A program made the position numbers and the translations under genes. From assembly GCA_038230095.1 (NCBI GenBank), contig JBBRNT010000004.1, forward strand, positions 20,448-84,447: DNA of 64,000 nt, read 5' to 3'. Positions 12,321 through 34,682 of this stretch are shown here, piece after piece. Position 1 is the first letter of the stretch, and each line of letters starts with the position of its first letter. The DNA comes from Candidatus Saccharimonadia bacterium. GTDB taxonomy: Bacteria; Patescibacteriota; Saccharimonadia; UBA4664; JBBRNT01. Under the pieces are notes generated by a model that worked only from the letters and a program-made list of their open reading frames with translations, had not been told where the DNA came from and ran no database searches.

Positions 12321-12357
12321 GCCCCGCTAGCACTCTGGTGCTAGCGGGGTTCTGCTT
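12321..12357 (+). terminator. rho-independent terminator (12-bp perfect stem)
   Basis: CCCCGCTAGCAC-TCTG-GTGCTAGCGGGG-TTCTGCTT. Confidence 0.6.
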
Positions 12358-12392
12358 ACCCGGCGTCAGCCAGTTTCTGCTACCATACAGCC

Positions 12393-13343
12393 ATGTCGGA
12401 ACACTCACTCACTCAGACTGTGGCCTGGCCTGGGGCCGGCCGCTACATTGTTGCTGTCTCCGGCGGCGTCGATTCAGTGTGTCTACTAGACCTGTTGGCG
12501 GCCCAGGCTAGAGCCCGGAGCTACGAGCTAATTGTGGCTCATGTTGACCATGCATTACGGCCAGACTCCGGCGATGACCAGGCGCTCGTGCGACAGGCTG
12601 CCAAGGATTACCACCTGCCCTTCATCACGACTACCTTGAGCCTGGGGGATACCAGCGAGGCTACCGCCCGTGCCGCCCGCTACAGCTTCCTCCGCCGAGT
12701 CATGGCAGAGCAGAAAGCCAGTGGCATCATTACGGCCCACACTCTAGATGACCAGCTGGAAACGCTGGTATTTGCCGCGCTCCGTACCCAGAGCGGGCGT
12801 GGGCTTCTGGGTATCCAATCAGGTGGGGAGTTGCTACGCCCATTACTAGCAGTCACGAAGGCGCAGCTAGTGGGCTACGCGCGGGAGCGCCAGCTAGTCT
12901 GGCGCGAGGACTCTACCAATGCTGAGACCCACTACGCTAGAAATGCCATCCGCCACCACTTCCTGCCCGCTGCCCTAGGGCACAATCCAGAGTTTGCCCA
13001 GACTGCGCACAGCGTCGTAGGTCAGTTGGCCACCACACGCCGGCAGCTTTGGGAGGCAGTAGGGCAGTGGCTTACGGTACATGCTACGCAGACACGCGCC
13101 GGACTGCAGCTCAATCGCCGCGCCGTACTCGCCCAGGACTTTGCCGTGGTGGCAGAGATAATTGCCCAGGCCACCGCCCGCCACTTCCCAGGCATAGAGC
13201 TAGCAGCAGAGCGCATCCAGGAAGCTGCCCGCTTTGCCAAAACTGCCCGCTCCGGTCGGGTGGAGTTGGGTCAGGCCCTGAGCCTCACTATTACCGGCCA
13301 ATTCATAACGCTTTCGATTGCCCGCCTGCCTCAGAACCGGTAG
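12393..13343 (+). CDS. tilS: tRNA(Ile)-lysidine synthetase
   Basis: PP-loop SGGVDS at the N-terminus (RYIVAVSGGVDSVCLL) and the TilS-type central and C-terminal regions. 316 aa. Confidence 0.88.
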   Translation: MSEHSLTQTVAWPGAGRYIVAVSGGVDSVCLLDLLAAQARARSYELIVAHVDHALRPDSGDDQALVRQAAKDYHLPFITTTLSLGDTSEATARAARYSFLRRVMAEQKASGIITAHTLDDQLETLVFAALRTQSGRGLLGIQSGGELLRPLLAVTKAQLVGYARERQLVWREDSTNAETHYARNAIRHHFLPAALGHNPEFAQTAHSVVGQLATTRRQLWEAVGQWLTVHATQTRAGLQLNRRAVLAQDFAVVAEIIAQATARHFPGIELAAERIQEAARFAKTARSGRVELGQALSLTITGQFITLSIARLPQNR

Positions 13344-13420
13344 AATAATCTGACTAGTTATATACGGCTCCCCAGGATAGAATTAGAAGCGAGTGCAAAC
13401 ATTGCTAGTGGAAGGTAAGT

Positions 13421-15319
13421 ATGAAGAAAACAACCCGCAAATTTTGGTTTTTAATCGGTGGTCTCCTCTTGGTGGCTGGGGCCTTAGTAGCTTTTGCTCC
13501 GCAGACCAAAACCGAGAAGGTTTCATTATCACAGGTCATTGAGGAATCAAAGAACGACAAGATCCAGCGCATAGAGGTCGACGGCCAGCAGCTGACCGTG
13601 ACCATGAAGGATCCGTCCGCTCCCAAGCAAATTGCTCAGAAGGAAGCCACGGCCAATCTGAAAGACTACGGCATTGACTATAGTAAGATCACTGTCGAGC
13701 CCAAGAGCGCCGACAGCACCAGCACCCGTATCTGGGATATGATCAGCATCTTCGGACCCATCCTGCTCATTATCGCCTTCTTCTATATTATGATGCGCCA
13801 GGCCCAGGGTTCTAGTAACCAGGCCATGAGCTTTGGTAAGTCCCGTGCCCGCCTTTTTGGCTCAGACAAGGAGCAGGTCACGTTCAAGGATGTAGCTGGT
13901 GCTGAGGAAGCCAAGCAAGAGCTAGAGGAGATTGTCGAGTTCCTGAAGTACCCAGCCAAGTTCGAGACCCTTGGCGCCAAAATTCCTAAAGGCGTTCTCC
14001 TCTTTGGCCCTCCCGGAACAGGTAAGACCCTCATGGCGCGTGCCGTGGCCGGCGAGGCTGGGGTGCCATTCTTCAGCATTTCCGGTTCAGAGTTTGTGGA
14101 AATGTTTGTCGGCGTCGGCGCTAGCCGTGTTCGCGATCTGTTCCAGAAAGCCAAAAAGAACTCCCCCTGCATTATCTTTATCGACGAGATTGATGCCGTC
14201 GGCCGCCAGCGCGGTACCGGTATGGGTGGCGGGCACGACGAGCGCGAGCAGACTCTCAACCAGATTCTGGTTGAAATGGACGGCTTTGAGCAGGGCACTA
14301 CCGTTATTGTCATGGCCGCTACCAACCGCCCAGACGTGCTCGACCCTGCACTACTCCGTCCCGGTCGTTTCGATCGTCGCGTTACCCTTGAGAACCCAGA
14401 CATGAATAACCGCAAGTCTATCCTGGAAGTGCATAGCAAGAATAAGCCGTTAGCAACCGATGTCGACTTCCTCACAATCGCCAAGAAGACGCCTGGTTTC
14501 TCCGGTGCGGACCTTCAGAATGTTATGAATGAGGCCGCCATCCTCGCCGCTCGTCTAAATCAAAAGAAAATCACCCAGAAAGACATTAGCACCTCGGTGG
14601 AGAAAGTTACGCTCGGACCGGAGCGCCGCAGCCACGTCATGAACACTGCCGAGAAGAAGATTACCGCCTATCACGAGGCCGGTCACGCCATTGTGGCTCA
14701 TCTTCTGCCCAATGCGCACCCTGTCCACAAGGTATCTATCGTGTCTCGTGGTTCCGCCGGTGGCTTCACCTGGCAACTACCTACTGAGGATCGCCATCTT
14801 AATAGCGTCTCAGAGTTCAAGGACGACATGGCCGTCATGCTCGGTGGCCGTATGGCCGAGCAGGTAGTCTTTGGCGAGATCACCACTGGTGCCTCCAATG
14901 ACCTCCAGAATGCCAACAGTCTAGCCCGCCACATGATCATGGACTATGGCATGAGCGACAAGCTGCGCAATCGTGTCTTTGGGACCCAGCACGATGCTAT
15001 CTTCCTTGGGCGCGATCTAGGCTCTGGCAAGGAGTACTCGGAAGAGGTGGCCAACACTATCGACACAGAGGTGGCCGCCCTCATCGATGAGGCTGCCGCT
15101 ACTGCTGAGCGCGTTATTACCAAAAACCGCGACAAGCTAGACAAGATTGCCAATCAGCTTATCAAGACTGAAACTCTCGAAGGCAAGGAGTTCTCAGACC
15201 TCGTTGGCCCAGGCAACAACAGCCGTGGTGGCGAAGAGGTCATCGCAGAGACCAAGGCTGCTGCCACCAAGCGCGCGGACAAGACCGGCAAAGACGCCGA
15301 AGTAACTGCCACAGCCTAA
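13421..15319 (+). CDS. ftsH: ATP-dependent zinc metalloprotease FtsH
   Basis: N-terminal TMs, Walker [20 protein letters not shown] zinc motif. Confidence 0.97.
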
Positions 15320-15353
15320 CTCTACCGCCCGAAGCGCGGTATAATACCTAGCA

Positions 15354-16949
15354 GTGGACAAACTAATAAACAAAGTAAATCGCCGTACCACCACCGGGGT
15401 TGCGGCCACGCTCATCTCTGTATCGTACCTGTTGAGCAGGGTACTTGGCCTGTTCCGTGATCGCGTTCTTGCGAGCCACTTTGGAATTGGACCACTGGCC
15501 GACGCCTATACAGCAGCCTTCCGCCTACCCGACCTGCTCTTCACCTTGCTTATTTCTGGCGCGCTGGCGGTAGCCTTTATCCCCGTCTTTGCCCACCTCG
15601 TTGAGAAGGATAAGGGCCACAGGGAGGCCTGGCAGCTAGCGAGCGATGTACTCAATCTCTGCCTTATTGCCACCGTCGTACTGGGGGTGCTCAGCGCCAT
15701 TTTCGCCTCACCCATCGTGCATTTAATCACGCCCGGCTTCGACCCAGCTCGGCATGATCTGACAGTTAAGCTCACCCGCATTATGCTGCTGACGCCAGTA
15801 ATCTTCGCGCTGTCTAGCGTATGGGGTAGCATTGCCCAGGCCTTTAACCGGTTTGTATTCTTTGCCATGGCGGGTGTTTTCTACAATGTGGGGATCATTG
15901 TAGGCATTGTTGTTTTTGGCCGCACGGGGTCCATAGAGGGCGTCGCGTGGGGTGTGGTAGTAGGCGCGCTGGCCCAGGCCACAGTTCAAGTGCTGGGCCT
16001 AGCTGGGCTTGGCTACCGCTACTCCCCGAAGCTGCACCTACGCAATCCAGAACTGTGGCGGGTAGTCGCCCTCATGATCCCTCGCTCAATCGACCAGGGT
16101 ATAGACCAGGTCAACTACACCGTCCAGACTATTGTCGGCTCTAGCCTAGCCACGGGCTCGCTCACCGCCTACTACTACGCCAATAATCTCAAGAACGTCC
16201 CGCTAGTACTCTTCGGTAGCGCTATTGCTACCGCAGTCTTTCCCACTATGGCCAAAGACGCCGCCGCAGGTCGGATAGATAAGCTCATAGAAGGCTTTGT
16301 AGCCAATATGCGTTTCGTGCTGTTTCTTATCATTCCAGCCGCCGCTGTCACCGTTATCCTCCGAGGCTACATTGTCCGACTGCTGTTTGGTTTTGGTAAT
16401 GCCATGACGGCCACGACCCTCGGCTGGTTTAGCGGCGCCATTGTCGCTACGAGCATATTCTTCCTGGTTACCAGAGTGTTCTACGCGCTCGAGGACTCCA
16501 AAACACCGCTCTATGTCAGCCTATTTGCCATCACCATCAATATTATGCTCAGCTTCGCCTTGGGCAGCCGCTACGGCGTAGCCGGTCTGGCCATGGCCCA
16601 GTCGATGGTGGCGGCTGCCGAGGTGCTCATCTTGCTGCTATTGCTGAGCCGTAAGCTACCGAGCATTGGCGGCGCCCAGATCTGGGCCGGCTTCTGGCGT
16701 ATTAGTCTAGCTACCGCCATTTCGGGGAGCGTCATGTACCTACTGGTGGTGCGCTCGCTGCCACTATACTTAAATGATCTGGGCTTTCTCAGTATTGGCC
16801 CTAAGTTTGCCCTTATTGCACTAGCGGGGTTGGTCAGTTATCTGGTACCATGCTACCTGCTACGGCTTCGTGAAGCCAAACTCTTCGTCGCCCGCTTCCA
16901 CGAACAAATACTCAAGCCTCTCAATATACTGAATCAACGAAACGACTAG
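15354..16949 (+). CDS. murJ: lipid II flippase MurJ (MviN)
   Basis: 14-TM protein, N-terminus SRVLGLFRDRVLASHFG...DAY.AAFRLP typical of MurJ. Confidence 0.9.
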   Translation: MDKLINKVNRRTTTGVAATLISVSYLLSRVLGLFRDRVLASHFGIGPLADAYTAAFRLPDLLFTLLISGALAVAFIPVFAHLVEKDKGHREAWQLASDVLNLCLIATVVLGVLSAIFASPIVHLITPGFDPARHDLTVKLTRIMLLTPVIFALSSVWGSIAQAFNRFVFFAMAGVFYNVGIIVGIVVFGRTGSIEGVAWGVVVGALAQATVQVLGLAGLGYRYSPKLHLRNPELWRVVALMIPRSIDQGIDQVNYTVQTIVGSSLATGSLTAYYYANNLKNVPLVLFGSAIATAVFPTMAKDAAAGRIDKLIEGFVANMRFVLFLIIPAAAVTVILRGYIVRLLFGFGNAMTATTLGWFSGAIVATSIFFLVTRVFYALEDSKTPLYVSLFAITINIMLSFALGSRYGVAGLAMAQSMVAAAEVLILLLLLSRKLPSIGGAQIWAGFWRISLATAISGSVMYLLVVRSLPLYLNDLGFLSIGPKFALIALAGLVSYLVPCYLLRLREAKLFVARFHEQILKPLNILNQRND

Positions 16950-16953
16950 TCTC

Positions 16954-18741
16954 ATGTCAGACCAATCCCATATCCGCAATTTCTGCATTATTGCTCATAT
17001 AGATCACGGTAAGTCTACGCTGGCTGACCGCTTGCTGGAGCTGACCGGTACCGTCGACGCGCGCCATATGAAGGCTCAGCTTTTAGACAAGATGGACCTT
17101 GAACGCGAGAAGGGTATTACCATTAAGCTGGCTCCAGTGCGCATGAACTACCAGGGCTGCCAGCTCAATCTAATCGATACACCCGGCCACGTCGACTTTA
17201 GCTATGAGGTGTCCCGGAGCCTGGAGGCCTGCGAGGGCGCTCTACTTATTGTGGACGCCAGCCAGGGCATACAGGCGCAGACCCTGGCCAATGTCTACCT
17301 GGCCCTTGGCGCCGATCTGACCATTATCCCGGTTCTCAATAAGATAGACCTACCGGCGGCAGATGTGGACCGGGTGAGCAGTGAGATTGTCGCGCTCCTA
17401 GGCTGCGATCCAGCAGATATACTCCACATTAGCGCCAAGACGGGCCAGGGCGTAGCAGAGGTACTCACCGCCGTCATAGACCGTGTCCCGGCCCCCAAGG
17501 TCTCAGATAGCGACACTACCCGCGCCCTCATATTTGATAGCTACTACGACGACTATCGCGGCGTCATCCTCTATGTGCGCGCCGTGGACGGCACCATTAA
17601 GAAGAACGATAGCCTGGTCATGATGAGCACAACCAGCCGGAGCATAGCGCTGGAGGTAGGTTGTCTCTCGCCCGAGCTATCACCGCTGCCGGTCATTAAT
17701 ACTGGCGAGATTGGCTACATTGTTACCAATCTCAAGTCCACTCGCGAGGCCAAGGTGGGGGATACCGTTACGCTAGAAAAGCACCCGGCCACCCAGGCGC
17801 TGCCGGGCTACAAGGACGTTAAGCCGTTTGTCTACGCTGGCTTCTTCCCAACGAGCAACGAGGACTACAATAGCCTCAAAGACGCCATTGATAAGCTTAG
17901 TCTCAGCGACTCTGCCCTGGTCTATGAGCCCGAGAACTCGCCGGTTCTGGGCTTCGGCTTCCGTATTGGCTTCCTCGGCCTACTCCACATGGACATTGTG
18001 AAAGAACGTCTGGAGCGAGAGTACGATCTGGATCTGATCGTTACTAACCCTAGTACGGACTATCAGGTGCAGCTAGTTGACGGCAGTGAGTTAAGCATAA
18101 AGAGCGCGAGTGACCTACCCGACGTTACCCGTATTACGGAGATCCGCGAGCCGTGGATTAAGGGCGAGGTAGTCTGCCCCAAGGAGTACGTGGGGGCCGT
18201 CATCCAGCTCATTGTCGGCAAGCGTGGCATACAGACCAATCTGGGCTTTGTCGACGCCCAGCTAGCCCTCGTCAGCTTTGAGGCGCCCTTGGCCAATCTC
18301 CTCACCGATTTCTATGACAAGCTGAAGAGCATTACGTCCGGCTATGGCTCGTTTAACTACGAGCTGCATAACTACCGTACGCAGGACCTAGTCCGCCTGG
18401 ACTTCTATGTTGCGGGCGACAGGGTCGATGCCCTCAGCCTCATGGTGCACCGCACTGAAGCCCCCTATGTGGGTCGCGATACCGTAAAGAAGCTCAAGGA
18501 AGTCATCCCACGCCAGCAGTTCTCCGTCTCTCTCCAAGCGGCTATTGGTGGCAAGTTCATTGCCCGCGAGGACGTCAGCGCCTTCCGTAAGGACGTTATT
18601 GCTGGCCTCTACGGCGGCGACGTGTCGCGTAAGAATAAGCTGCGTGACAAACAGAAAAAGGGCAAGGCTCGTATGAAGCGCTTTGGCAAAGTCGATATCC
18701 CGGCCGAGGCCTTCACTACCCTCGTACGCCGCGACGACTGA
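16954..18741 (+). CDS. lepA: elongation factor 4 (LepA)
   Basis: IRNFCIIAHIDHGKSTLADR, DTPGHVDF, and the LepA-specific C-terminal domain. Confidence 0.97.
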   Translation: MSDQSHIRNFCIIAHIDHGKSTLADRLLELTGTVDARHMKAQLLDKMDLEREKGITIKLAPVRMNYQGCQLNLIDTPGHVDFSYEVSRSLEACEGALLIVDASQGIQAQTLANVYLALGADLTIIPVLNKIDLPAADVDRVSSEIVALLGCDPADILHISAKTGQGVAEVLTAVIDRVPAPKVSDSDTTRALIFDSYYDDYRGVILYVRAVDGTIKKNDSLVMMSTTSRSIALEVGCLSPELSPLPVINTGEIGYIVTNLKSTREAKVGDTVTLEKHPATQALPGYKDVKPFVYAGFFPTSNEDYNSLKDAIDKLSLSDSALVYEPENSPVLGFGFRIGFLGLLHMDIVKERLEREYDLDLIVTNPSTDYQVQLVDGSELSIKSASDLPDVTRITEIREPWIKGEVVCPKEYVGAVIQLIVGKRGIQTNLGFVDAQLALVSFEAPLANLLTDFYDKLKSITSGYGSFNYELHNYRTQDLVRLDFYVAGDRVDALSLMVHRTEAPYVGRDTVKKLKEVIPRQQFSVSLQAAIGGKFIAREDVSAFRKDVIAGLYGGDVSRKNKLRDKQKKGKARMKRFGKVDIPAEAFTTLVRRDD

Positions 18742-18896
18742 GCATAACGATATTGACGGTAAGTCCCTAGCGTGAGCTCTAGATAATGTCCACCACCAGT
18801 GGTGAGGCCAAGAAAATTAGTGATTACCACAAGCCCAATAGCAACTTTAATGGCTAAGGGGTGGGTACGGCGGCCAATAAGCATTAGAATAATGCT

Positions 18897-19835
18897 ATGA
18901 CTCTTATAAAACACAAACTATCTCCTCTGGCCCTGGCGCCGGCTGCGCTGCTTATGGTCGTACAGCTACTCTTGCCTCTAGCCGCCCACGGCGAGGACAC
19001 GCCCATCCGGGGCCACCTGCCCGTGCAGTTTGGCGAGTTCCTACCTGCCATTACTGATCCAATGGCAGGGGAGTCGGTCATTACCGACAGCGAGGCCAAG
19101 TGGCAGAGGCCTATAGACATGGTCATGTACTACCAGGCCTGGGGCGATCACCAGAGCGACTGGCGCACCCCACGAGTAGACATACTACAGAAGATTGCCC
19201 CTCGGACTGCCCTTATTACCTGGGAGCCGTGGGACCCCAGCGCTGGCCCTTGGCAGACGCAGTATGCGCCGTCGGCCATTGCCCGCGGAAACTATGACGA
19301 CTACATTACCACCTGGGCCAAGGCGCTGGCAGACTTCGGCCAGCCGGTTTATCTGCGCCCGATGCACGAAATGAATGGTGGCTGGTACCCGTGGGGTGGC
19401 GCCTTGTGGGGCAATCCTGCACTAGACTATGTCGCTGCCTGGCACCATATGCACGACATATTCATGGCCGCTGGTGCCACCAATGTCCGCTGGGTCTGGG
19501 CCGCCAATGCCCAAGACGTGCCCGAGTCAAACCACTTTGAGCAGTACTACCCTGGCAGCGCCTACGTGGACGTACTGGGTCTGGATGGCTACAACTGGGG
19601 GAACACGCAGTGGTGGAGCCATTGGCAGTCATTTGACGACATTTTCCATAAGCCCTACGACCGCATTACTCAGCTGGGGGACCAGCCTATCTGGGTGGCA
19701 GAGACGGCCAGTACCAGCCGGTCTGGCGACCGCCCGGCCTGGATCCGCGACATGTGGACCACCGCCCAGACCCTCGATAGACTCACTACTATCATCTGGT
19801 TTTCCGGCGACAAAGAGACCGACTGGTCCATCTAG
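18897..19835 (+). CDS. secreted glycoside hydrolase, GH26-like (mannanase-type fold)
   Basis: Signal peptide, then LRPMHEMNGGWYPWGG resembling the GH26 R-x-x-HEMNG-W-(F/Y)-W-G block. Other (beta/alpha)8 hydrolase features follow. Confidence 0.45.
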   Translation: MTLIKHKLSPLALAPAALLMVVQLLLPLAAHGEDTPIRGHLPVQFGEFLPAITDPMAGESVITDSEAKWQRPIDMVMYYQAWGDHQSDWRTPRVDILQKIAPRTALITWEPWDPSAGPWQTQYAPSAIARGNYDDYITTWAKALADFGQPVYLRPMHEMNGGWYPWGGALWGNPALDYVAAWHHMHDIFMAAGATNVRWVWAANAQDVPESNHFEQYYPGSAYVDVLGLDGYNWGNTQWWSHWQSFDDIFHKPYDRITQLGDQPIWVAETASTSRSGDRPAWIRDMWTTAQTLDRLTTIIWFSGDKETDWSI

Positions 19836-20002
19836 TATTTTCATTTGTCAGGCATAGAATACGGCCATTGTTGAATAGCAAGTACAGCAAGCTCTGCGTC
19901 AATCGGTCGACAGAACCTTTGCAGGTCACCTACCGACACATTTGGGCGACGTTGCTCTTGGTGTTACCTCGGCTCCATCATCGCTCAGGGCAAATAATGT
20001 CC

Positions 20003-20032
20003 TAAAAAAAGCCCTCGTCAGATAGACGAGGG
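20003..20032 (-). terminator. rho-independent terminator (minus strand)
   Basis: GCCCTCGTC-AGATA-GACGAGGGC preceded on the plus strand by A7, i.e. T7 after the hairpin on the minus strand. Confidence 0.6.
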
Positions 20033-20118
20033 CAGGGAAGGCGTTGGCGCTAGGTTTGGGGTACAAGCTTGCTATATAGGCGCCTGTTGCCAGCCATGAG
20101 GCGTACATATTGGTTTGG

Positions 20119-20430
20119 CTATGGCTTCTTTCGCCGGATAAGGAGCTTGGCGCCCAAGACGGCCACTACCAGCGTACTAGCCGCTATGAGTACGACGCGG
20201 CCACTTTTCAACGTCACCCGGGCGTGGCGATCGTCTTCGGCTGCCCAGACGGAATCTATTTCATCTACCGCCACCAGCTCATCGCCGAGTTCAATGTGGG
20301 CGGCGTACAAAGAGTCGTGGCCGTAGTCAAAGCGCTGGTTCAGCCGAGCTAGAAGCTTGCGGACGTGGAGTATGCGGGCATGGATTGGTCGCAGATTGCG
20401 CGGGCTGCCGTCGGCGTTGCGCAGTACCAT
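20119..20430 (-). CDS. hypothetical protein with C-terminal TM anchor
   Basis: 103 aa, RBS AAAGGA 7 nt upstream, own terminator downstream. No recognisable domain. Confidence 0.4.
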   Translation of the reverse strand: MVLRNADGSPRNLRPIHARILHVRKLLARLNQRFDYGHDSLYAAHIELGDELVAVDEIDSVWAAEDDRHARVTLKSGRVVLIAASTLVVAVLGAKLLIRRKKP

Positions 20431-20491
20431 AGCTAGTCCTTTCGAAGGTGCGTTCGTGGAGGAAATGCCTGGCTAGTATAGCAAAACGCCT

Positions 20492-20524
20492 CCAAATGAA
20501 AACCACCCCGCGGGATCGGGGTGG
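20492..20524 (-). terminator. rho-independent terminator for bcp (minus strand)
   Basis: CCACCCCG-CGGGAT-CGGGGTGG with TTTTCATTTGG on the minus strand. Confidence 0.55.
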
Positions 20525-20632
20525 GTTTCGTACGGGGTGGCCCGCTCAACAAAGGTCAGTAGCGGTTAACCGGGAGACGGACAAACGAATCGATTAGTAT
20601 GGCACATATTTACAACTGGCGGTTAGGCACAT

Positions 20633-21088
20633 TTATGCTGCACTGAGCGCCTCGAAGTCGCGGAGGATCTGTATGGCATGCTCCTTGGGCGTTACTTTCG
20701 GGTACTCCTTGGCAATCTGGCCAGCGGGATCTATCAGGAAGGTCTTACGCATTATCCCTTGGTACTCCCGTCCCATGAACTTCTTCAGGCCAAATGCTCC
20801 GTAGGCTGTGGTCACCTTCTTGTCCTCATCGGCCAGTAGCGGGAAGTTCAGCTGGTACTTGTCGGCAAACTTCTTGTGGCTAGCCACGGAGTCGCCAGAA
20901 ACGCCTAGTATATATAGACCTTTTTCCTTTAGATAACTGTACTCGTCACGGAAGCTACAGGCCTCGGTCGTACAGCCTGGGGTGTCATCCTTGGGGTAGA
21001 AGTACAGCACTACCCACTTACCGGCGTAGTCTGCCAGGCAGTGGATGGTGCTGTCTTGGTCTTGGAGTGAGAAGCTGGGGGCTTTCAT
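20633..21088 (-). CDS. bcp: thiol peroxidase / peroxiredoxin Bcp (AhpC/TSA family)
   Basis: YFYPKDDTPGCTTEACSFRD peroxidatic Cys motif. 151 aa. Confidence 0.88.
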   Translation of the reverse strand: MKAPSFSLQDQDSTIHCLADYAGKWVVLYFYPKDDTPGCTTEACSFRDEYSYLKEKGLYILGVSGDSVASHKKFADKYQLNFPLLADEDKKVTTAYGAFGLKKFMGREYQGIMRKTFLIDPAGQIAKEYPKVTPKEHAIQILRDFEALSAA

Positions 21089-27187: not shown

Positions 27188-27517
27188 TTGTTTGCCAGCT
27201 ACCAGTTGCGGGCGCGTACCACCAAGGTATTTGTCGGTGTACTCCTTGTGCTAGCGCTGCTCCACAATGCCTACCCGCACTGGTCCTGGCTAACGTTTGT
27301 CCTCGACTACATCTGGGTGCTTATCCTAGCCGTCGCTGTCTATGGCCTAGTTCGGCTTATCATTACCGGCCGCCGCGCCTACCGCGCCCTGACCAGTATG
27401 GATAAGAGCGCCCGCCAGCGGTTTGACCAAGCCAACCACCTTAGCCACAAGACTCCTAGGGCCAGCGAGGCCGTGGTCGAGGGTGAGGTTGTTATGGAAT
27501 CTAAGGCCGCCAAATAG
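27188..27517 (+). CDS. small membrane protein (2 TM), TTG start
   Basis: 109-aa ORF between dnaK and the nudix gene, abutting both. Confidence 0.35.
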   Translation: MFASYQLRARTTKVFVGVLLVLALLHNAYPHWSWLTFVLDYIWVLILAVAVYGLVRLIITGRRAYRALTSMDKSARQRFDQANHLSHKTPRASEAVVEGEVVMESKAAK

Positions 27518-27921
27518 TGAACGAATTTACCCCACCTATCTCTGCTAAGGGCATTCTCATTGAAGATGGCCTGGTCTGGTTACGCCAAAATGAGTTTGGT
27601 AAGTGGGAACTCCCGGGTGGGCGCGTTGAGGCAGGTGAACAGCCAGAGGACACAGTCGTACGCGAATTGCGCGAGGAACTGGGTCTGGAGTGCAGCGTAA
27701 CCCGGCTCGTCGATGTCCGCATGCTAGAACAGACCTGGAGCACCCGCAACCCGTTTGCCCTAATTATTAGTTTCGCCTGCCGGGCTGGGGAGAATGTGGG
27801 GGATTTTGAACACATTGGAGAGGCTGGCCCAGCACAGTTTAAGCAGCACAAGCTAAGCGAGCTTGATAAACTTGATCTGCCCAGTGTCTACCACCAAGCA
27901 ATTATGAAAGCGAGCAAGTAG
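27517..27921 (+). CDS. Nudix hydrolase
   Basis: Nudix box [23 protein letters not shown]. 134 aa, GTG start overlapping the upstream stop. Confidence 0.75.
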
Positions 27922-29055: not shown

Positions 29056-29934
29056 CTACTTCGGCTTATCTGTACTAGTTACGGACTGGATGAATTCTGG
29101 CAGCATTGTGCGGTACTCTTCTTCTAGAATTGCTCGGGACTCAGCTAGGTCCGCTCCACGGTAGATGCCACCGCGACCAATAGTGACATGCCAGGCGCGG
29201 TGATGCGGGTTGAACAGCAGGGTATAGCCACTGCGTGCCAGCCTGGCGGTAAAGTCCACCTCCTCGTGCGCCGAGGTCCGAGAATTTAGTCGGGGGTTAT
29301 AGCCCCCAATCCGCGCGGCCGCATCGGCCCGAAACATATATGAGTTTACAAAGTAGTCCATGTTATAGCGAGTATCTTGGCTGAGCAGACTGTTCACCCC
29401 TGACCAATCCATAACCTGCTCCTTACGCCCAAATGCCGCCCTCCAGTCTCCGCCTACCTGGCTCAGTTCGAGCCGCTGCAGGTGGTGACTATGGGGCAGC
29501 GCCGTCACGGCGTCGGACGGCTGGGTGTGAGATATGGCTGGCACAGAACTGGTAATGTACCCAGACACGGCCCCAATTGTTGTCTTACTCACTAGATCAT
29601 CGTAGAGCGCCTGTATATATCCGGGGCCGAGTAGTAGGTCATCATCGAGCATCATAATAGCCTCTCCCAGCGCCATGTTGAGGGCCGCGTTCTTCGCCTC
29701 CACCAAGCCAGTCGTTGCGTTTGAGCACATATGCAGGGCCACCTCTGGGCGCAGTATTGCCGCAATCGGCACCAACTGCGCGAGCATAGCATGGTATGTC
29801 GCACGCTGCGGGTCGTCCTCATCAACCGAGACAATAATCTCCATGGGTACGCGAGTCGTCTGACTGAGTACATTGATGAGGAGCCCATAGAGCACGTAGG
29901 GCCTGTCGCGGCTCACAATGATGGTACTAATCAT
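29056..29934 (-). CDS. family 2 glycosyltransferase (GT-A fold)
   Basis: IIVSRD...EIIVSVDEDDP...LDDD (DxD) layout typical of GT2. Last gene of the five-gene operon. Confidence 0.72.
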   Translation of the reverse strand: MISTIIVSRDRPYVLYGLLINVLSQTTRVPMEIIVSVDEDDPQRATYHAMLAQLVPIAAILRPEVALHMCSNATTGLVEAKNAALNMALGEAIMMLDDDLLLGPGYIQALYDDLVSKTTIGAVSGYITSSVPAISHTQPSDAVTALPHSHHLQRLELSQVGGDWRAAFGRKEQVMDWSGVNSLLSQDTRYNMDYFVNSYMFRADAAARIGGYNPRLNSRTSAHEEVDFTARLARSGYTLLFNPHHRAWHVTIGRGGIYRGADLAESRAILEEEYRTMLPEFIQSVTSTDKPK

Positions 29935-30844
29935 GGAGCTGCTCCAGGTGGGCTATGAATGCCTGCATCTCGGCAGTACGGCTTGCCGGATAGTGGCCAC
30001 CTTCAGCAATCTTCTCGCGGTAGTACAACACAATCTCCGCCAGTCCCACGCCGTCGGTGGGCACACCAGAGTCCTCTAGCCTGCCCACAGCATGGAAAGC
30101 CACGGCCCGGGTAAAACAGGCTTGGCAGGTACCGCAGTGGCCACTGCTACCGAAGCAGGACAGCGTTTGTCGCAAGACAGCGTAACGGGCAGGGGAAAGC
30201 GTACCCCAGCCGACCAGATCGCTTTTGCTGAGCCCCACTAGGGGGAGGAACAGCGCTAGGCCAGCCTCGGAAGCGAGTCCCTGCATGTGCCGCACGAACA
30301 CCAGGCTCTTGTCTCCGCCAGAGTAAGGCATCTCACCCTTCACAGGGCAGAACCACAGCTCGCTGTCACCGTCATTCTGCGCCATAGTTTCTGTCAGAAT
30401 CAAATAATTACGAAGCGGGAATAAGTGGCGCCACTCTCCCCCCATGCGAGACAGGCCCTCCGCTGCCACATCACCTAGATTGAGCTGCATGTGCTCCAGC
30501 CATAGCCGGGCAGCCTCTGGGTAGCTTTCCAGGATAGTCTTCTGGAGCCGGGCCACACTGGTCTGCTCACCGGTGTCATAGGGGTGTCCATAGCTGGTGT
30601 ACACCGTTCGCACCGGTAGGCCACCCTCTAGCGCCATCAGTAATGCCGATGTGGAGTCAAGACCGCCGCTCCAGGGTAAGAGTATTGTGCGTTGCCCAGG
30701 CAGCGGATCAATCTGGGCAGAGTACTCCTTGGCCCGAGTTTGTTCTAGGTAGACGAGGCTATCGGGGCTGTTCAGTGCCTCGGTAAATGTTACCGGCAGC
30801 CGATCATAATGTAGGGTTGTGTGTTTCACGGAGAGGCTCCTCAA
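29927..30844 (-). CDS. queC: 7-cyano-7-deazaguanine synthase (QueC) homolog with about 55-aa N-terminal extension
   Basis: PP-loop LLPWSGGLDSTS, FPLRN, GEMPYSGGD (compare ETDFSGYPD), PLVGLSKSDL, and C-terminal zinc motif C-x7-C-x2-C-x2-C (SCFGSSGHCGTCQAC). Blocks are collinear with QueC as I recall the sequence. TTG/GTG start. Confidence 0.8.
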   Translation of the reverse strand: MRSLSVKHTTLHYDRLPVTFTEALNSPDSLVYLEQTRAKEYSAQIDPLPGQRTILLPWSGGLDSTSALLMALEGGLPVRTVYTSYGHPYDTGEQTSVARLQKTILESYPEAARLWLEHMQLNLGDVAAEGLSRMGGEWRHLFPLRNYLILTETMAQNDGDSELWFCPVKGEMPYSGGDKSLVFVRHMQGLASEAGLALFLPLVGLSKSDLVGWGTLSPARYAVLRQTLSCFGSSGHCGTCQACFTRAVAFHAVGRLEDSGVPTDGVGLAEIVLYYREKIAEGGHYPASRTAEMQAFIAHLEQLHD

Positions 30845-31310
30845 AGTCTATTTCAAGCCGTACTGGGTCATCCTGGCCTGGTATGAACTGCAGACTTATC
30901 ATACTTGGTCGTCTACCAATTGCAATCTGGAACCAGAGCTGGTCGCCGGGCCACATGTCTGCTATCGGCACCTGTGCTAGGTCATACCACTCCACAGTCA
31001 TCTCATTGGTCTCCTCTGGGTGGCCATCCCATTGGCTCGCCGTGTAGCAGTACAGGACAATGTCGGGCTCAGTTGCTGGCGCGTAGGTGAAGTACACAAT
31101 GGCGTTCAGCTTAGGATCGAGCAGCCTGGCGTGGGTCTCTTCCTCAAACTCGCGTAGCATCGCTGCTCGGATGTTCTCATCGGTCTCCTCCAGCTTCCCT
31201 CCAAAGCCATTGAGCTTGCCTGCCGCCCCGCCAAATTTCTTTCTACCAAGCAGTATGCGCCCCCGCTCTCGGTCTATAAGGTAGCCAAGTGTGACTATCC
31301 GGCCAGTCAT
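30804..31310 (-). CDS. Nudix hydrolase (MutT-like)
   Basis: Nudix box G(x5)E(x7)REFEEETH: GFGGKLEETDENIRAAMLREFEEETHA. 168 aa, overlaps both neighbours. Confidence 0.7.
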   Translation of the reverse strand: MTGRIVTLGYLIDRERGRILLGRKKFGGAAGKLNGFGGKLEETDENIRAAMLREFEEETHARLLDPKLNAIVYFTYAPATEPDIVLYCYTASQWDGHPEETNEMTVEWYDLAQVPIADMWPGDQLWFQIAIGRRPSMISLQFIPGQDDPVRLEIDFEEPLRETHNPTL

Positions 31311-33049
31311 GACTGCGCTCCAAGCCAGTTGCTAAGCGTAGTTTGCTGTGACTCGCTCAGGAATGGCCTTGCCTGCTCAACTTCAGCTGGCACTGGCATA
31401 GGATTGGGTGCTAGCTCGCCGGCAGCAGCGTACACCCCTGAGTAGTAGTCCATGAACGACCGGGCTGCAGTCCAGGTACTAAGCCAGCCCACCGCGTCGT
31501 GCTCGGCTAGCTGCTGCTGGGCCAGCTGACGCCGCCGTTCGACCGACGCCTCCAGCTGGACACGGGCTTGTAGTAGGTGGTCCGCAGCTGACTCCACCGC
31601 CAGCCCCGCCATGGCCAAGCGGGCTAGCTCGCGGGAGACGATGAGATTTGTCGGGTAGCTACGCATGAGTTCCGTCGCGGTAGCCGCTACCTCGGCCGTA
31701 GCCTCTGCCGTCTCGAGAGCCCGGATGAGTCGAATGCCGAGAAATACTTGCTGGCTCTCCCCCTGGGCTAGCCTGCTGAGCTCCCGTGCCTCCGCCAGGG
31801 TGTCGGGCTGGTGCTGGGCCGTATGGTAGGCTAGCTGCATCAGACGTTTCGCCATCGCCGGGTCCTCTGGTAGGACTCGGCTATACACTACGGCACCTCC
31901 GCGCTCGGCCACGAGAGTCAGGCTACCATCTGGCTCATCCCTTAGGCTTGCTGTCTCGCCAAAACGCTGCCCGACATTACCAAACGGTGTGGCATCAATA
32001 ATTCGCCCCCGCCCCTCGCCTTGTCGCTCGAGCGCCACCCAGTGTACTGGGCAGCTCTCCGTCAGCGGGTCCATGAGAACCTGGGCAAACTCGACTTGTC
32101 CCAGTCCCAGCTCCGAGGCCCAGGCGGCCAGGCTAGTATTGCTATAGACGCAGTTTGAGAAGCCCTGGCCCACTTCGTGTTCAGCTGGAAAGGCCGCTCC
32201 CGACGAGCTATTGACTAACAGCGCAGTGAGCTCGTCGATGGTTGCCGGCATCTGCTGGCCCGGTCGCAGCCGTAGGGGGAGGATACTTGGGTCATGGCTT
32301 GGGTGTTCGATTGGCTCGGTTGTGAGTGCTAGCTCCACTACCCTGGCTACTTCACCTGCGTGCTTACCATCTACGCTCACATCTATCAGCTGGCCACTCG
32401 TTTCTTGTTGCTGGCGGTAGCCAAATGAAAGAGGGAACAGGTCCATGATGAGTGCTTGGGCTTCTATCTGCAGGCCGGTCATAGCATACTTTTCATCTGT
32501 AGCAGTTTTGCTAGCATGGCTCCGCTCCAGGGTAGCCTGTGCGTCTTCAGAGTGGAAGTAGAAAGTCTTGTCGGGTTGCTGACCGGTCGAGCTCGCCATG
32601 CTCCAGAGCGAGGCCAGTAGACTCGTACGCTGCTCTGTAGCCGCGTAGCGCGCCGGATCTGCCAGGATTATTTTGGCAGCCGAGTAGACCACAGTGGTAT
32701 CAATGTCTCGGTCACAGAGTAGAAATTGCTTGCCTTCGATCTGTCCGGGTACTACGCTGGCTTCCCAGAGCTGTCCAGCGACTATCTCGTGGTAGCGGTC
32801 GTAGGCGGTGGCCGTGGCGCGCTCAGCGTCTAGGCAGACCAGGCCATCTGCCGTGTCCTGAAACAGGCTTTGCCACTGCTCATAGAGGGCTACCGAGCGC
32901 TCGTGGTGGGGGCTATCCGTCTTGTCCTGAAGGATGTCACGGTTTTTTACGACCTCCAGACCCTGCGCCTCTAGATAGTTGCGCACCCCTTCCACTACTG
33001 TAGACTTCCCACTTCCGCGCTCGCCCTCAAAAGATACCCGTTCCGTCAT
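31307..33049 (-). CDS. fusion protein: thymidylate-kinase-like P-loop dNMP kinase domain + transglutaminase-like Cys/His/Asp domain + helical C-terminal region
   Basis: N-terminus FEGERGSGKST (Walker A), LLCDRDIDTTVVYSA (compare TMK VIGDRHDLSTQAYQG), lid region. Mid-protein GQGFSNCVY...HWVALERQGEGRGRIIDATPFG matches the transglutaminase-like core (C...H-W-E...D). Confidence 0.55.
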   Translation of the reverse strand: MTERVSFEGERGSGKSTVVEGVRNYLEAQGLEVVKNRDILQDKTDSPHHERSVALYEQWQSLFQDTADGLVCLDAERATATAYDRYHEIVAGQLWEASVVPGQIEGKQFLLCDRDIDTTVVYSAAKIILADPARYAATEQRTSLLASLWSMASSTGQQPDKTFYFHSEDAQATLERSHASKTATDEKYAMTGLQIEAQALIMDLFPLSFGYRQQQETSGQLIDVSVDGKHAGEVARVVELALTTEPIEHPSHDPSILPLRLRPGQQMPATIDELTALLVNSSSGAAFPAEHEVGQGFSNCVYSNTSLAAWASELGLGQVEFAQVLMDPLTESCPVHWVALERQGEGRGRIIDATPFGNVGQRFGETASLRDEPDGSLTLVAERGGAVVYSRVLPEDPAMAKRLMQLAYHTAQHQPDTLAEARELSRLAQGESQQVFLGIRLIRALETAEATAEVAATATELMRSYPTNLIVSRELARLAMAGLAVESAADHLLQARVQLEASVERRRQLAQQQLAEHDAVGWLSTWTAARSFMDYYSGVYAAAGELAPNPMPVPAEVEQARPFLSESQQTTLSNWLGAQS

Positions 33050-33834
33050 ACCTTGATCCCCGCTGCTCGTCTCATAATATCAATATTATACATGCAGTCT
33101 TCCAGCTGATCTGGGCTCAGCTGGGCACTCATAGGTAGGTGCGTAGCCAGCTTGCGGTAGGCCGTACCTTCCTCAAATCGTATTCCGCTTGCACCATGCA
33201 CCACTGGCGCACTGGTGTCCAGTCCAGTCACAAAGCCAAACTGGCGGAGCTGGGCCAGTTCCAGGTGTACGGCGTCGGCTGAGCCGAGCACGTGTACGGT
33301 CATGTGCTCTGGCAGTAGCCCCTTGCTCACCAGGTGTTCAAGTGCAGCGATGCGAGCATAGTCCGGACGGGCGTCCGGAAAGGCGGGCGCCGTCTTGCCA
33401 ATTGCCATTGCACCTACCTGAGGCAGGCTCGTCAGCTGCCGCCAGCTACTGAGCCAGTCGGTATAGTCTCGGCCGTGCGCCACGGCAGTCAGGCGGGTGC
33501 CACCTAGCTGAGTCGCGTACTTGGCCAGAAATGCTCGCACCAGCTCGTATGTGCCTGCACCATCATCAATCTTATCTGGCAGTATTAGTTGTTGCGGTCG
33601 GACGAGACGGAAGGCCTCTAGGAGTGGCTCTCCGTCCACCGACTCGCCAAGCTCACAGGCTCCGTTGTCCAGGATGACCCACTGCCCGGCCTCAGAGCGC
33701 TCGCGGAAGAACCGCGCATACTCTGCATCAAGCAAGACTTCCTGGGCGAGCGCCATGAAATAGGCAGTATCGCCATACCCCGAGAGGGTAGTCAGGTGTG
33801 CAGTAGGAGCAATAATAGCAATCTGTATACTCAT
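33046..33834 (-). CDS. TGT-like (DpdA-like) TIM-barrel protein lacking the zinc subdomain
   Basis: 262 aa. Blocks align to Tgt: WVILDNGACE (~LTDSGGFQ), LTAVAHGR (~LFGIVQGG), VGAMAIGK (~GIAIGGLS), VHVLGSADAVHLELAQLRQFGFVTGLDTSAPV (~[28 protein letters not shown]). No Cys cluster, so it is a paralog of the canonical tgt at 5065. Confidence 0.4.
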   Translation of the reverse strand: MSIQIAIIAPTAHLTTLSGYGDTAYFMALAQEVLLDAEYARFFRERSEAGQWVILDNGACELGESVDGEPLLEAFRLVRPQQLILPDKIDDGAGTYELVRAFLAKYATQLGGTRLTAVAHGRDYTDWLSSWRQLTSLPQVGAMAIGKTAPAFPDARPDYARIAALEHLVSKGLLPEHMTVHVLGSADAVHLELAQLRQFGFVTGLDTSAPVVHGASGIRFEEGTAYRKLATHLPMSAQLSPDQLEDCMYNIDIMRRAAGIKV

Positions 33835-33882
33835 GGCCGTATCATACCCGCTTCGGTCATACCACGCGAGCTGCCATAGGGC

Positions 33883-34095
33883 CTATCCGTGGCGCTTTGG
33901 GTCCACCTGCATCCAGAGCCCAGCCATGACCAGTGCTATGAACACAATAGGCACACCAGGAATTAGTAGGTTGAGTACCCACTGGGGGAGTGTAGTGCCA
34001 CCGAGAAATAGTGTAACCAGCCCCACCAGCAAAACGCCGAAAGCAGAGTAGATAAGTTTACGGGCGGTAGCTTTGGCGGCGCGACGAGTTTTCAT
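33883..34095 (-). CDS. small membrane protein (70 aa, 2 TM), possible first gene of the operon
   Basis: ATG at 34095 (MKTRRAAKATARK...). Sits upstream of the TGT-like gene on the same strand. Confidence 0.3.
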   Translation of the reverse strand: MKTRRAAKATARKLIYSAFGVLLVGLVTLFLGGTTLPQWVLNLLIPGVPIVFIALVMAGLWMQVDPKRHG

Positions 34096-34193
34096 ACTGG
34101 TATTATAGCCCTCATGCTCGGTGGCTCCAAGGGCGGGGAGTGGAAATATTGCCTTGCTACAGCTATACTGGCGACAGATAAGCATAAGTAATT

Positions 34194-34682
34194 ATGAACT
34201 TGCCCGTAATTGGAACGCTTAGTGTAGATCTGGTGATCATTGCTACCGTGGTCGCCGTGGTCTTGTTTATGATCGTGCTCGGCCACGGCAAGCTGCGCAA
34301 TCTGGCGCTGGCTAGCTTTGTTGGCTGGGTACTGGCAGCCGAGTTTGCGACTACCGTACACGGCGTAGCAGGCTCATTGAGCCTAGGCACAACCCGCCTT
34401 GTGCTCTACATTGCGCCCATCGTCCTTCTGGAGTTCGGACGCCGCCACCAGGACGCTGGCCCGCGCCAAGGGCTGGTCTTCGGCCTGGTCATGGCTGTGG
34501 CAACCGCTGCACTTATTATCAGTGGCGTCCTTACCCAGTTTGATCAAGGCACCCGTGAGTCTATCACCGGTAGCTCCCAGATAGCCTTCCTCATCTACAA
34601 TTTGCGGCTCATCTGGCTGGGCCTGGTTCCCGTTCTGGCCATGCTCGAGGGCTTCATTAAGCCCAAAGACAAGCACCACTAG
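34194..34682 (+). CDS. CvpA-like small integral membrane protein
   Basis: 162 aa, 4-5 TM. Size and topology resemble colicin V production protein family. Weak. Confidence 0.3.
   Translation: MNLPVIGTLSVDLVIIATVVAVVLFMIVLGHGKLRNLALASFVGWVLAAEFATTVHGVAGSLSLGTTRLVLYIAPIVLLEFGRRHQDAGPRQGLVFGLVMAVATAALIISGVLTQFDQGTRESITGSSQIAFLIYNLRLIWLGLVPVLAMLEGFIKPKDKHH

Follow-up and report, generated by a model that had tools for sequence, protein, structure and literature searches.

A five-gene DpdA3 cassette of a Saccharimonadia bacterium points to an undescribed cellular route of 7-deazaguanine into nucleic acid

In this report, we focus on a cassette of five overlapping genes found in a 64,000-nucleotide stretch of the genome of a Candidatus Saccharimonadia bacterium (contig JBBRNT010000004.1, positions 20,448 to 84,447 of the forward strand). 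This whole stretch is termed here the window, and positions are counted from its first nucleotide. The cassette is read from the minus strand and is predicted to encode a minimal guanine transglycosylase of the DpdA3 type, a kinase fusion protein of 580 amino acids (aa), a Nudix hydrolase, a QueC-like enzyme and a glycosyltransferase of family 2 (GT2). DpdA3-type and QueC-family enzymes are both hallmarks of 7-deazaguanine chemistry, and an earlier note on this DNA had proposed that the genes form a candidate operon for 7-deazaguanine modification of nucleic acid. This proposal is supported by the DpdA3 barrel, by the conserved synteny and by a QueC-like enzyme that is not an orthodox housekeeping one. 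The sequence comparisons firmly indicate a co-inherited module, in which a DpdA3 transglycosylase is associated with a QueC-family enzyme, two nucleotide-type enzymes and a glycosyltransferase. Together with the structural models, they point to an undescribed cellular route of 7-deazaguanine into nucleic acid. While 7-deazaguanine modification systems are known as a kind, the partner set and the cellular host are unreported for a DpdA3. As for the way the cassette would work, our preferred reading, to which we give a rough probability of 0.4, is drawn by analogy: the cassette would install a salvaged 7-deazaguanine in place of guanine by way of the deoxynucleotide pool, following the logic of the hydroxymethylcytosine pathway of phage T4.

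The five open reading frames (ORFs) are all present on the minus strand where the earlier note had placed them. The transglycosylase gene (33046-33834) and the 580-aa gene (31307-33049) overlap by 4 nucleotides (nt), as do the latter and the Nudix gene (30804-31310). The overlap of the Nudix and QueC-like genes amounts to 41 nt and that of the QueC-like and GT2 (29056-29934) genes to 8 nt. The start of the QueC-like gene is more probably the GTG at 30829 (29927-30829, 300 aa) than the TTG at 30844 (305 aa), as judged from the sequence: the GTG has a GAGGAG Shine-Dalgarno sequence 7 nt upstream, and it agrees with the MKxxTK N-termini of the orthologs and with the 300-aa gene call in L014, a locus identical to that of the window. 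This start shortens the overlap with the Nudix gene from 41 to 26 nt. The five cassette genes are translationally coupled and co-conserved.

The conservation of the gene order in relatives, which the earlier note had singled out as a point to check, holds: the same five-gene order, with similar overlaps, is found in at least seven lineages, that of the window included. These are the window (with L014), L001, L002 (identical to L013), L003/L004, L005, L012 and L021. The L005 locus is partial, as is L006, a further copy, both being cut by contig ends. L013 belongs to a 1.05-Mb genome named 'Patescibacteria group bacterium BroJett019', and L012 is labelled as an uncultured gammaproteobacterial metagenome-assembled genome. 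Compared with the window proteins, the transglycosylases are 35-37% identical at the amino-acid level, the kinase fusions 28-35%, the Nudix proteins 33-44% and the QueC-like proteins 38-43%; the GT2, at 49-53%, is the best conserved member of the cassette. The lineages are thus deeply divergent (28-53% identity over the cassette), with the full set retained.

The relatives also hint at salvage. In six lineages, that is, all but the window's, a Vut_1 (PF02592) gene is found divergently adjacent, just upstream of the cassette. We take Vut_1 to be the family of the importer YhhQ, which reportedly takes up the queuosine precursors preQ0 (7-cyano-7-deazaguanine) and preQ1 (7-aminomethyl-7-deazaguanine). 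This linkage suggests, at the level of gene content, that a 7-deazaguanine precursor is salvaged. In L021, a SurE nucleotidase gene is inserted between the Vut_1 gene and the cassette. None of the loci has folE, queD or queE next to the cassette, and no defence or restriction genes are visible there. The neighbours are rather housekeeping genes, namely dnaK/dnaJ in the window and uvrA, uvrC and uvrB in relatives. In L001, L002, L003 and L013 (~3000-20700), the cassette is flanked by uvrC-uvrA and uvrB; an aminoacyl-tRNA synthetase of the tRNA-synt_1b family also lies between the uvr genes, together with an ABC transporter in L002, L003 and L013. This link to excision repair is possibly coincidental.

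The 262-aa protein encoded at 33046-33834 gave no match in Pfam, NCBIfam or PADLOC. A word-indexed search of 5.8 billion proteins returned just eight relatives of it, and a full hidden Markov model search of 1.84 billion cluster representatives returned 5125 family members, 563 of them below 1e-30. Judged by these sequence searches, the family is a large but divergent one. An AlphaFold model built on the eight-sequence alignment folds as a beta/alpha barrel (pLDDT 91.5, pTM 0.90). Its top 50 Foldseek matches in the PDB are all bacterial tRNA-guanine transglycosylases (TGT; best E 4e-7, probability 1.0), so that the type of the barrel, which the earlier note had left to be checked, is TGT-like in the model. 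A structure comparison ranks DpdA, the transglycosylase of the bacterial Dpd systems, as its best PDB match. On the viral side, the best Foldseek match in BFVD is M4SLA5, a 259-aa protein of the Cellulophaga phage phiST (TM 0.84/0.85, E 1.4e-17). In tblastn searches of phage genomes, the 'DNA guanine transglycosylase' gene of the Flavobacterium phage immuto 2-6A was found at 2e-17, CGPG_00065 of phiST at 1e-10 and CP21, of the CP21/CPt10-type Campylobacter phages, at 1e-6; the identity to these phage DpdA3 members is 25-28%. PHROG 20335 matches the protein at 6e-10.

Searched against the PDB, a 140-sequence profile of the family yields a single significant sequence match, DpdA (E 4.7e-4); the PDB profile search with the 8-sequence alignment had returned neither TGT nor DpdA. 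In the 140-sequence alignment, D206 of the window protein (in DTSAP) falls on DpdA Asp256, Q120-G121 on His181-Gly182, and H181-x-L183-G184 on the strand of Leu236, the offset of 20 in the DpdA numbering having been verified via Phe265. In DpdA, Asp256 is the nucleophile, His181 touches the base and Leu236 stacks on it, with Asp95 as the general acid/base and Asp130 as a base-binding residue (PMC10164549). D56 (DNGACE) and D87 (LPD) are near-invariant among the 140 family members and, from their position only, would be equivalent to Asp95 and Asp130. The active site that we propose on these alignments comprises D56, D87 of the LPD motif, Q120-G121, H181/L183/G184 and D206 as the equivalent of the nucleophile. 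The protein ends about 55 residues past the latter and has no CxCxxC or CxCx2Cx22H zinc motif. The earlier note's second, minimal and zinc-less TGT/DpdA-like protein is thereby borne out. Its block-by-block alignment with TGT stands as regards the register, which agrees with the structure and with the DpdA evidence, but not as regards significance: hhalign against the TGT of the window gives a probability of 0.3%, and the homology to TGT therefore rests on structure and on the profile of the wider family.

The DpdA3 subfamily was defined in viruses and is credited with the complete replacement of G, its substrate being unknown (Hutinet et al. 2023, PMC10516641). The 262-aa protein is similar to the founding members and has the expected architecture, a TGT-like TIM barrel of about 260 aa without a zinc subdomain. 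What sets it apart from the subfamily as described, with viral genes encoded together with FolE, QueD and QueE, is a chromosomal, housekeeping setting in which a QueC-family gene is present without those three. From sequence and model, we place the protein in the DpdA3 subfamily, with the predicted catalytic aspartates of TGT and DpdA and without the zinc subdomain. The isoelectric point was also considered as a proxy for DNA binding, and it proved uninformative, as it ranges from 5 to 9.5 in the family. As a side observation, two PDB entries named 'Type III effector protein' (22yz_A and 22za_A) contain NGACEKGESI, to be compared with DNGACELGESI (aa 56-66), which is invariant in the cassette clade; this match covers 25 aa at E 0.44 and may reflect chance or a remote relative.

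The QueC-like protein (29927-30829) belongs to the QueC family, as it scores 51.4 bits with Pfam QueC (PF06508) for a cut-off of 22, but it is far from the QueC equivalog of NCBIfam (TIGR00364), with 35.3 bits for the 150.3 required. Against the QueC of Bacillus subtilis (3bl5), phmmer gives an E of 0.0036 only, and the nearest annotated relatives, at about 25% identity, are the phage QueC of phiSM and the Gat-QueC of 9g-type phages. The canonical signature of QueC includes SGGxDS, YxQxHxxE, VPxRN, YPDC, K165, C(x)8CxxCxxC and Y189 (Libby et al. 2026, PMC13082051). The cassette proteins retain SGGLDS, PxRN, the conserved lysine and the Cys4 zinc motif. The spacing of this motif in the window is C-x6-C-x2-C-x2-C (C230, C237, C240, C243), not C-x7-C as the earlier note had it, and the orthologs have the canonical C-x8-C. 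The other motifs are altered. YxQxHxxE has become YGQxYxxKE (H39 to Y; the window has H for Q), which corresponds to the YxQ(x)5E form that is also present in Cap9. YPDC is lost (SGGDKS), and Y189, a tyrosine that is essential in canonical QueC, is replaced by F in all five orthologs. Both ends of the proteins are also extended in a conserved manner, by about 50 aa at the N-terminus and about 55 aa at the C-terminus. The gene context of the cassette is none of those of the QueC clusters characterised in PMC13082051, a survey that left clusters 7, 8 and 10 unanalysed. The 'unambiguous QueC homolog' of the earlier note is therefore right for the family, in view of PF06508, the PP-loop SGGLDS and the four cysteines, and wrong if an orthodox QueC is meant (35 bits versus 150). 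With its score below the equivalog cut-off and its altered motifs, the gene does not look like the housekeeping queC, an eventuality that the earlier note had raised. We read the protein as an ATP-dependent, carboxyl-activating QueC-family enzyme, the substrate and nucleophile of which are uncertain.

The 580-aa protein (31307-33049) has three regions. The first one (about aa 1-230, 32360-33049) shows the motifs FEGERGSGKS, N36-R37, D113-R114-D115-x-D117-T118 and PDxTF...L174-x-R176. When the ortholog alignment is compared by hhalign with a genuine tmk (L018), it is aligned from the P-loop through the DR motif, including R37 and D113-R114, with a probability of 96.5% (E 1e-9). The best PDB matches of this domain are structures of thymidylate kinase (TMK), at E ~0.01, with the P-loop, DR-x-D and PDxTF collinear, while Pfam Thymidylate_kin (22.7 bits) and NCBIfam remain below their cut-offs. 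With the P-loop, the NMP-binding Arg (TREP position), the DR(Y/H) motif and the LID-region Arg in collinear order, its sequence makes it a divergent member of the thymidylate/deoxynucleoside monophosphate (dNMP) kinase family and a predicted kinase. In the middle domain (about aa 245-400, 31850-32317), C300 (SNCVYSN), H336-W337 (PVHW) and D352 (IIDxTPF) do not vary among five orthologs; the cysteine precedes the histidine by 36 residues, and the histidine the aspartate by 16. These residues likely form a Cys-His-Asp catalytic triad. The domain gave no Pfam match and no PDB profile match, and the single-sequence AlphaFold2 model of the whole protein is unusable (pLDDT 37). That it is transglutaminase- or papain-like is a plausible guess from the spacing and shape of the motif only. 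The C-terminal region (about aa 401-580, 31307-31849) is helical throughout in this low-confidence model and possibly TPR-like, with weak TPR matches in Pfam for one of the five orthologs. The fusion of a TMK to a transglutaminase that the earlier note had described thus stands for the TMK-like part and for the conserved Cys, His and Asp, and has no backing from Pfam or the PDB for the transglutaminase fold. No homologue of the 580-aa protein was found in phage genomes or in IMG/VR, and practically none in JGI metagenomes, where the sole match was an ordinary tmk.

The Nudix protein (30804-31310, 168 aa) matches Pfam NUDIX with 46.4 bits. In the PDB, phmmer finds vertebrate MTH1 at E 1.5e-21 over residues 2-155, that is, over the full length, so the protein is indeed a Nudix hydrolase, MTH1/NUDT1-like rather than specifically MutT-like as the earlier note had suggested. 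The base pocket of human MTH1 is made of Asn33, Trp117, Asp119 and Asp120. The equivalents of Asn33, Trp117 and Asp120 (N34, W120 and D123) are invariant in six orthologs, and all six have G, S or N where Asp119 aligns. This suggests that the fold and pocket of MTH1 are kept, with a base specificity that has probably changed and a pocket that may be reshaped around the N7/C8 edge of the purine. The protein would then be a purine (deoxy)nucleoside triphosphate ((d)NTP) pyrophosphohydrolase of changed base specificity. The GT2 (29056-29934, 292 aa) was also correctly named, since it scores 30.6 bits with Pfam Glycos_transf_2 for a cut-off of 23.3; it is of the GT-A type, with a DDD (DxD-type) motif, and has no sequence relative in the PDB.

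How could these proteins work together? On our preferred reading, exchange within the nucleotide pool, the importer would take up a 7-deazaguanine base such as 7-carboxy-7-deazaguanine (CDG) or preQ0, and the QueC-family enzyme would adenylate and then amidate the 7-carboxyl of the imported base. The Nudix enzyme would convert dGTP to dGMP, which would both provide the acceptor and reduce the competing dGTP. The DpdA3 enzyme would then exchange guanine for the deazaguanine on the mononucleotide (dGMP), and the dedicated kinase would rephosphorylate the product to the diphosphate, after which a polymerase would incorporate the modified nucleotide. Finally, the GT2 would attach a sugar to the modified base, probably when already in DNA. 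The Cys-His-Asp domain is the sole catalytic domain to be left without a step, every other one receiving a role. The scheme also agrees with a barrel that has lost all its nucleic-acid-binding additions. The TMK-like domain, the MTH1-like Nudix and the SurE of L021 argue in the same direction, as enzymes of mononucleotides. The logic would be that of T4, where the hydroxymethylcytosine pathway combines the gp56 dCTPase, the gp42 dCMP hydroxymethylase, the gp1 dNMP kinase and alpha- and beta-glucosyltransferases: a pyrophosphatase, a modification at the dNMP level, a dNMP kinase and a glycosyltransferase. The likeness is one of logic, and only if the scheme is right. The protein families are unrelated save for the kinase class, C is hydroxymethylated in the one case and G exchanged in the other, and the one serves a phage and the other a cell.

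The wider DpdA3 family gives further support. In P0152 (L016), a dNK/TMK-family kinase is fused N-terminally to DpdA3 (Pfam dNK 35.9 bits), and its gene sits between MazG and QueD-QueE-FolE. In L009/L010, QueD, QueE, a phosphoribosyltransferase and FolE are followed by DpdA3, after which come a DCD-like gene and one for a dGTP diphosphohydrolase. In phiST and immuto, two phages with full substitution of G, the vicinity of DpdA3 includes pyrophosphatases of the MazG or PRA-PH type. These two phages, together with CP21, a relative of the fully substituted CP220, also have a P-loop kinase-like gene near DpdA3: CGPG_00066 (L015 7526-8005; AAA_18) directly upstream in phiST; gp203 (L024 8478-9002; AAA_28, with weak TMK and dNK matches) two genes downstream in immuto; and CP21_068 (L025 7801-8343; annotated thymidylate kinase, Pfam AAA_28) directly downstream in CP21. 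Such a gene could be the missing activity for the amidation of CDG or for the phosphorylation of a dNMP; these kinases show no specific relation to that of the cassette beyond the P-loop. On its own, DpdA3 failed to modify DNA in E. coli, insertion into DNA has not been biochemically demonstrated for any DpdA3, and the word 'kinase' is absent from the paper that defined the subfamily (PMC10516641). Exchange in the pool would explain both the complete replacement of G in the DpdA3 phages and the failure of DpdA3 alone in E. coli.

Two other settings of DpdA3 may be mentioned here. In the phage-like L019, DpdA3 is preceded by Q_salvage, QueD, QueE and FolE; the Q_salvage (PF10343) protein is encoded at 1637-2599, and this family releases queuine from the queuosine nucleoside or nucleotide. 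In P0062 (L022 10001-11794, L023 394-2187) and P0145, DpdA3 continues into a fused C-terminal domain (about 340 aa) that weakly resembles PNP_UDP_1 (nucleoside phosphorylase). The contig of P0062 is archaeal-looking (PAC2, PolX, SerRS), with a CYTH triphosphatase-family gene directly next, so that P0062 is a further non-viral DpdA3 with a partner of the nucleoside or nucleotide type.

Several points weigh against exchange in the pool. To our knowledge, the characterised enzymes of the TGT superfamily all act on polynucleotides or, for Cap10, on a protein, and none on a free nucleotide. P-loop kinases of hypermodification pathways can act on bases carried by DNA, as the 5-hydroxymethyluracil DNA kinase does. 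A Vut_1 gene is missing from the window, the substrates of the QueC-like enzyme and of the GT2 are guesses, and incorporation throughout the genome would be drastic in a cell. Hutinet et al. (2023, PMC10516641) argue that all known deazaguanine modifications of DNA are post-replicative, and propose an insertion of this kind for DpdA3. The viral loci weigh in the same direction: a small P-loop protein lies within three genes of DpdA3 in only one of 78 dereplicated IMG/VR loci (L026-L145), which rules out a general DpdA3-kinase adjacency. Among the 146 immediate viral neighbours of DpdA3, 25 Pfam families are listed, none of them a kinase family, and the commonest neighbour is a DNA polymerase (30/146). 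The latter is of family A in 26 cases, 22 of them with UDG-like and 3'-5' exonuclease domains, and of family B in 4; GTP cyclohydrolase I follows with 7, MazG with 4, and dGTP diphosphohydrolase, QueC and Vut_1 with 1 each. Because this adjacency is not general, we have lowered the weight given to exchange in the nucleotide pool.

The alternative that survives best, and that is nearly as likely, is that the DpdA3 enzyme exchanges guanine post-replicatively in duplex DNA, as bacterial DpdA has been shown to do, which leads to the same end point in the DNA of the cell. The P-loop domain would then be a DpdB-like ATPase, or a kinase activating a group on the DNA-borne base for the Cys-His-Asp domain to which it is fused. 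Tailoring of the base, before or after its insertion, would fall to the QueC-like enzyme and the GT2, and the Nudix would have the sole task of excluding 7-deaza-(d)GTP from the pool. This agrees with DpdA being the best structural and sole significant PDB sequence match, with the nucleophile aligned, with the DNA polymerases and the lack of any kinase family among the viral neighbours, and with the precedent of the whole superfamily. The post-replicative proposal of Hutinet 2023 (PMC10516641) points the same way, and bacterial DpdA requires an ATPase, DpdB (PMC10164549). It accounts less well for a barrel that lacks the zinc site and all the insertions of DpdA implicated in the handling of DNA, for two genes out of five whose characterised relatives use free nucleotides, for the kinase::DpdA3 fusion and the MazG or dGTPase beside DpdA3 elsewhere, and for the inactivity of DpdA3 alone on DNA in E. 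coli (PMC10516641).

It is also conceivable, if unlikely, that the cassette makes or recycles a small molecule, either a glycosylated 7-deazapurine nucleoside or nucleotide, or host-scavenged 7-deazaguanine nucleotides that it would detoxify or recycle. The transglycosylase would attach the base to a ribose phosphate or remove it, with the kinase, the Nudix, the GT2 and the QueC-like enzyme, here an amide synthetase, in tailoring roles. The altered pocket motifs of the QueC-like enzyme, the SurE of L021 and the PNP_UDP_1-like fusions of P0145 and P0062 are compatible with such a role, and natural-product pathways offer parallels, with divergent QueC homologues acting as CDG amide-bond synthetases (RoyL), a PF00293 (Nudix) protein in the tubercidin pathway and a glycosyltransferase in that of huimycin (bioRxiv 10.64898/2026.04.15.718813). 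The known clusters for toyocamycin, tubercidin, huimycin and roseomycin, which likewise combine a divergent QueC, a Nudix-family enzyme and a glycosyltransferase, nevertheless have the de novo CDG/preQ0 genes (FolE-QueD-QueE) and no TGT/DpdA, which is the opposite of the cassette; they come from actinomycetes, and the huimycin glycosyltransferase is of PF13439 (bioRxiv 10.64898/2026.04.15.718813). In addition, the closest relatives of the cassette are phage DNA-modification genes, and the surroundings are housekeeping ones, including in a genome of about 1 Mb.

Ordinary queuosine/preQ salvage for tRNA, with the QueC-like gene as the housekeeping queC and the barrel as an accessory to TGT, is very improbable. 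A YhhQ/Vut_1 gene is adjacent in relatives and a canonical tgt is present in the genome, as would suit it, but this tgt is complete and lies elsewhere, at 5065-6138 on the plus strand, outside the cassette (Pfam TGT 415.7 bits), where the earlier note had reported it. The QueC-like protein is far below the equivalog cut-off and has changed H39 to Y, lost YPDC and changed Y189 to F. The kinase, the MTH1-like Nudix and the GT2 have no role in bacterial queuosine synthesis, and the relatives of the barrel are the DpdA3 of phages that carry 7-deazaguanine in their DNA.

Least probable of all is a protein deazaguanylation of the Cap9-Cap10 (type IV CBASS) or QatC kind, in which the QueC-family enzyme would place CDG on a protein N-terminus for anti-phage defence, leaving the conjugate to be bound or processed by the TGT-like barrel: to the Cap9-like YxQ(x)5E variant and the weak PDB sequence match to Cap9 (E 0.12) are opposed the lack of any CD-NTase, effector, QatA, QatB or QatD in the window or the related loci, PADLOC matches that are limited to a generic QueC and a generic Nudix, an NCBIfam QatC E of 0.055, the rank of Cap10 below DpdA, TGT, ArcTGT, QTRT2 and two aldolases in the structure comparison, phage relatives that are DNA-modification enzymes, and a housekeeping setting that is not a defence island. 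The reading as a defence system was rejected for want of partner genes.

The place of the cassette among known systems can now be considered. The nearest ones are the phage DpdA3 systems (phiST, immuto 2-6A and the CP220 group; PMC10516641), which share the subfamily, the size of about 260 aa, the lack of a zinc site, a co-located QueC-family gene and, in three groups, a P-loop kinase-like gene near DpdA3. The cassette differs from them in being cellular and chromosomal, without adjacent FolE/QueD/QueE and with a linked YhhQ-family importer instead. Its kinase is fused to a Cys-His-Asp domain and a helical domain that have no phage homologue, an MTH1-type Nudix takes the place of MazG, a GT2 is present, and the QueC is non-canonical. 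The bacterial Dpd systems are also cellular: they put preQ0 and then 7-amido-7-deazaguanine (ADG) in their own DNA, with a TGT fold, catalytic aspartates whose counterparts are predicted here, and an ATP-using partner (PMC10164549). Bacterial DpdA, however, has a CxCx2Cx22H zinc site and the insertions Ins1, Ins2, Ins3 and Ins8, all of which the cassette barrel lacks (PMC10164549). None of the Dpd genes DpdB (ParB-like), DpdC and DpdD-K is among the neighbours at the cassette loci, PADLOC gives no Dpd match, and the kinase, Nudix, GT2 and QueC-like enzyme of the cassette are foreign to Dpd. Cap9-Cap10 and QatC likewise associate a QueC-family enzyme with a remodelled TGT-fold protein outside tRNA metabolism; the cassette lacks their CD-NTase, effector or Qat partners, its barrel is nearer to DpdA/DpdA3, and its neighbours handle nucleotides.

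A full-text literature search found no paper joining Patescibacteria and DpdA, and DpdA3 was named just in PMC10516641 and its preprint. The cassette is described neither in the QueC-family survey (PMC13082051) nor in the 7-deazapurine survey (bioRxiv 10.64898/2026.04.15.718813); the latter would miss it for want of a QueE, because it is anchored on this gene. DpdA3 is the least understood subfamily of DNA transglycosylases, and the cassette gives it a defined set of five genes with fixed partners (kinase, MTH1-like Nudix, QueC-like enzyme, GT2 and importer), which poses a concrete question: does the exchange take place on the nucleotide or on DNA? We know of no report of a sugar-bearing deazaguanine in DNA, and the GT2 hints at one. 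In its most specific form, that a Patescibacteria lineage swaps the guanine of its own DNA, partly or wholly, for a glycosylated 7-deazaguanine made from a salvaged precursor through the pool with exchange on dGMP, the preferred reading becomes quite unlikely. If true, it would be the first case of a cellular DpdA3 system, of a TGT-family enzyme that uses a mononucleotide and of a deazaguanine with a sugar in DNA, and it would explain the 100% replacement of G in the DpdA3 phages. If the cell's own DNA is modified, by whichever route, 7-deazaguanine modification of DNA would reach the Patescibacteria without a visible restriction module, which would bear on their epibiotic lifestyle, on nucleotide scavenging and on sequencing.

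We will finally examine the surroundings of the cassette in the window. Its G+C content (58-59%) falls within the range of the window (50 to 60%), so there is no compositional sign of a recent acquisition. From one flank, hrcA-grpE-dnaK run towards the cassette together with a 109-aa ORF, a Nudix gene and dnaJ, and the other flank comprises small membrane ORFs along with an alpha/beta hydrolase, a tRNA-Lys and a large membrane protein. The promoter and terminator scans remained at background level, the Rfam scan of the window returned no family besides tRNA, and neither the window nor six cassette loci showed a preQ1 riboswitch or one of another class. In agreement with the earlier note, folE, queD and queE were not seen in the window, as tblastn with one phage query set gave no match, a weak test that covers 64 kb only.

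At 33883-34185 on the minus strand, 48 nt upstream of the transglycosylase gene, lies a small ORF of 100 aa (70 aa from the ATG at 34095) with two transmembrane segments, present in the ORF list and called as a 100-aa gene in L014. Its Pfam matches are all sub-threshold, the best being PrgI with 17.9 bits for a cut-off of 27. It is a weak candidate for the first gene of the operon. On the opposite strand, 34194-34682 encodes a predicted membrane protein of 162 aa without a Pfam match. These two ORFs occupy the position of the Vut_1 importer of the relatives, and the 162-aa protein could be a replacement transporter. The Nudix gene of the dnaK flank (27517-27921, plus strand, 134 aa) is a second one, unrelated to that of the cassette, and lies between dnaK and dnaJ near the convergent end. 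Further away, three tRNA-Met (CAT) genes are gathered within 3 kb, at 7528-10428.

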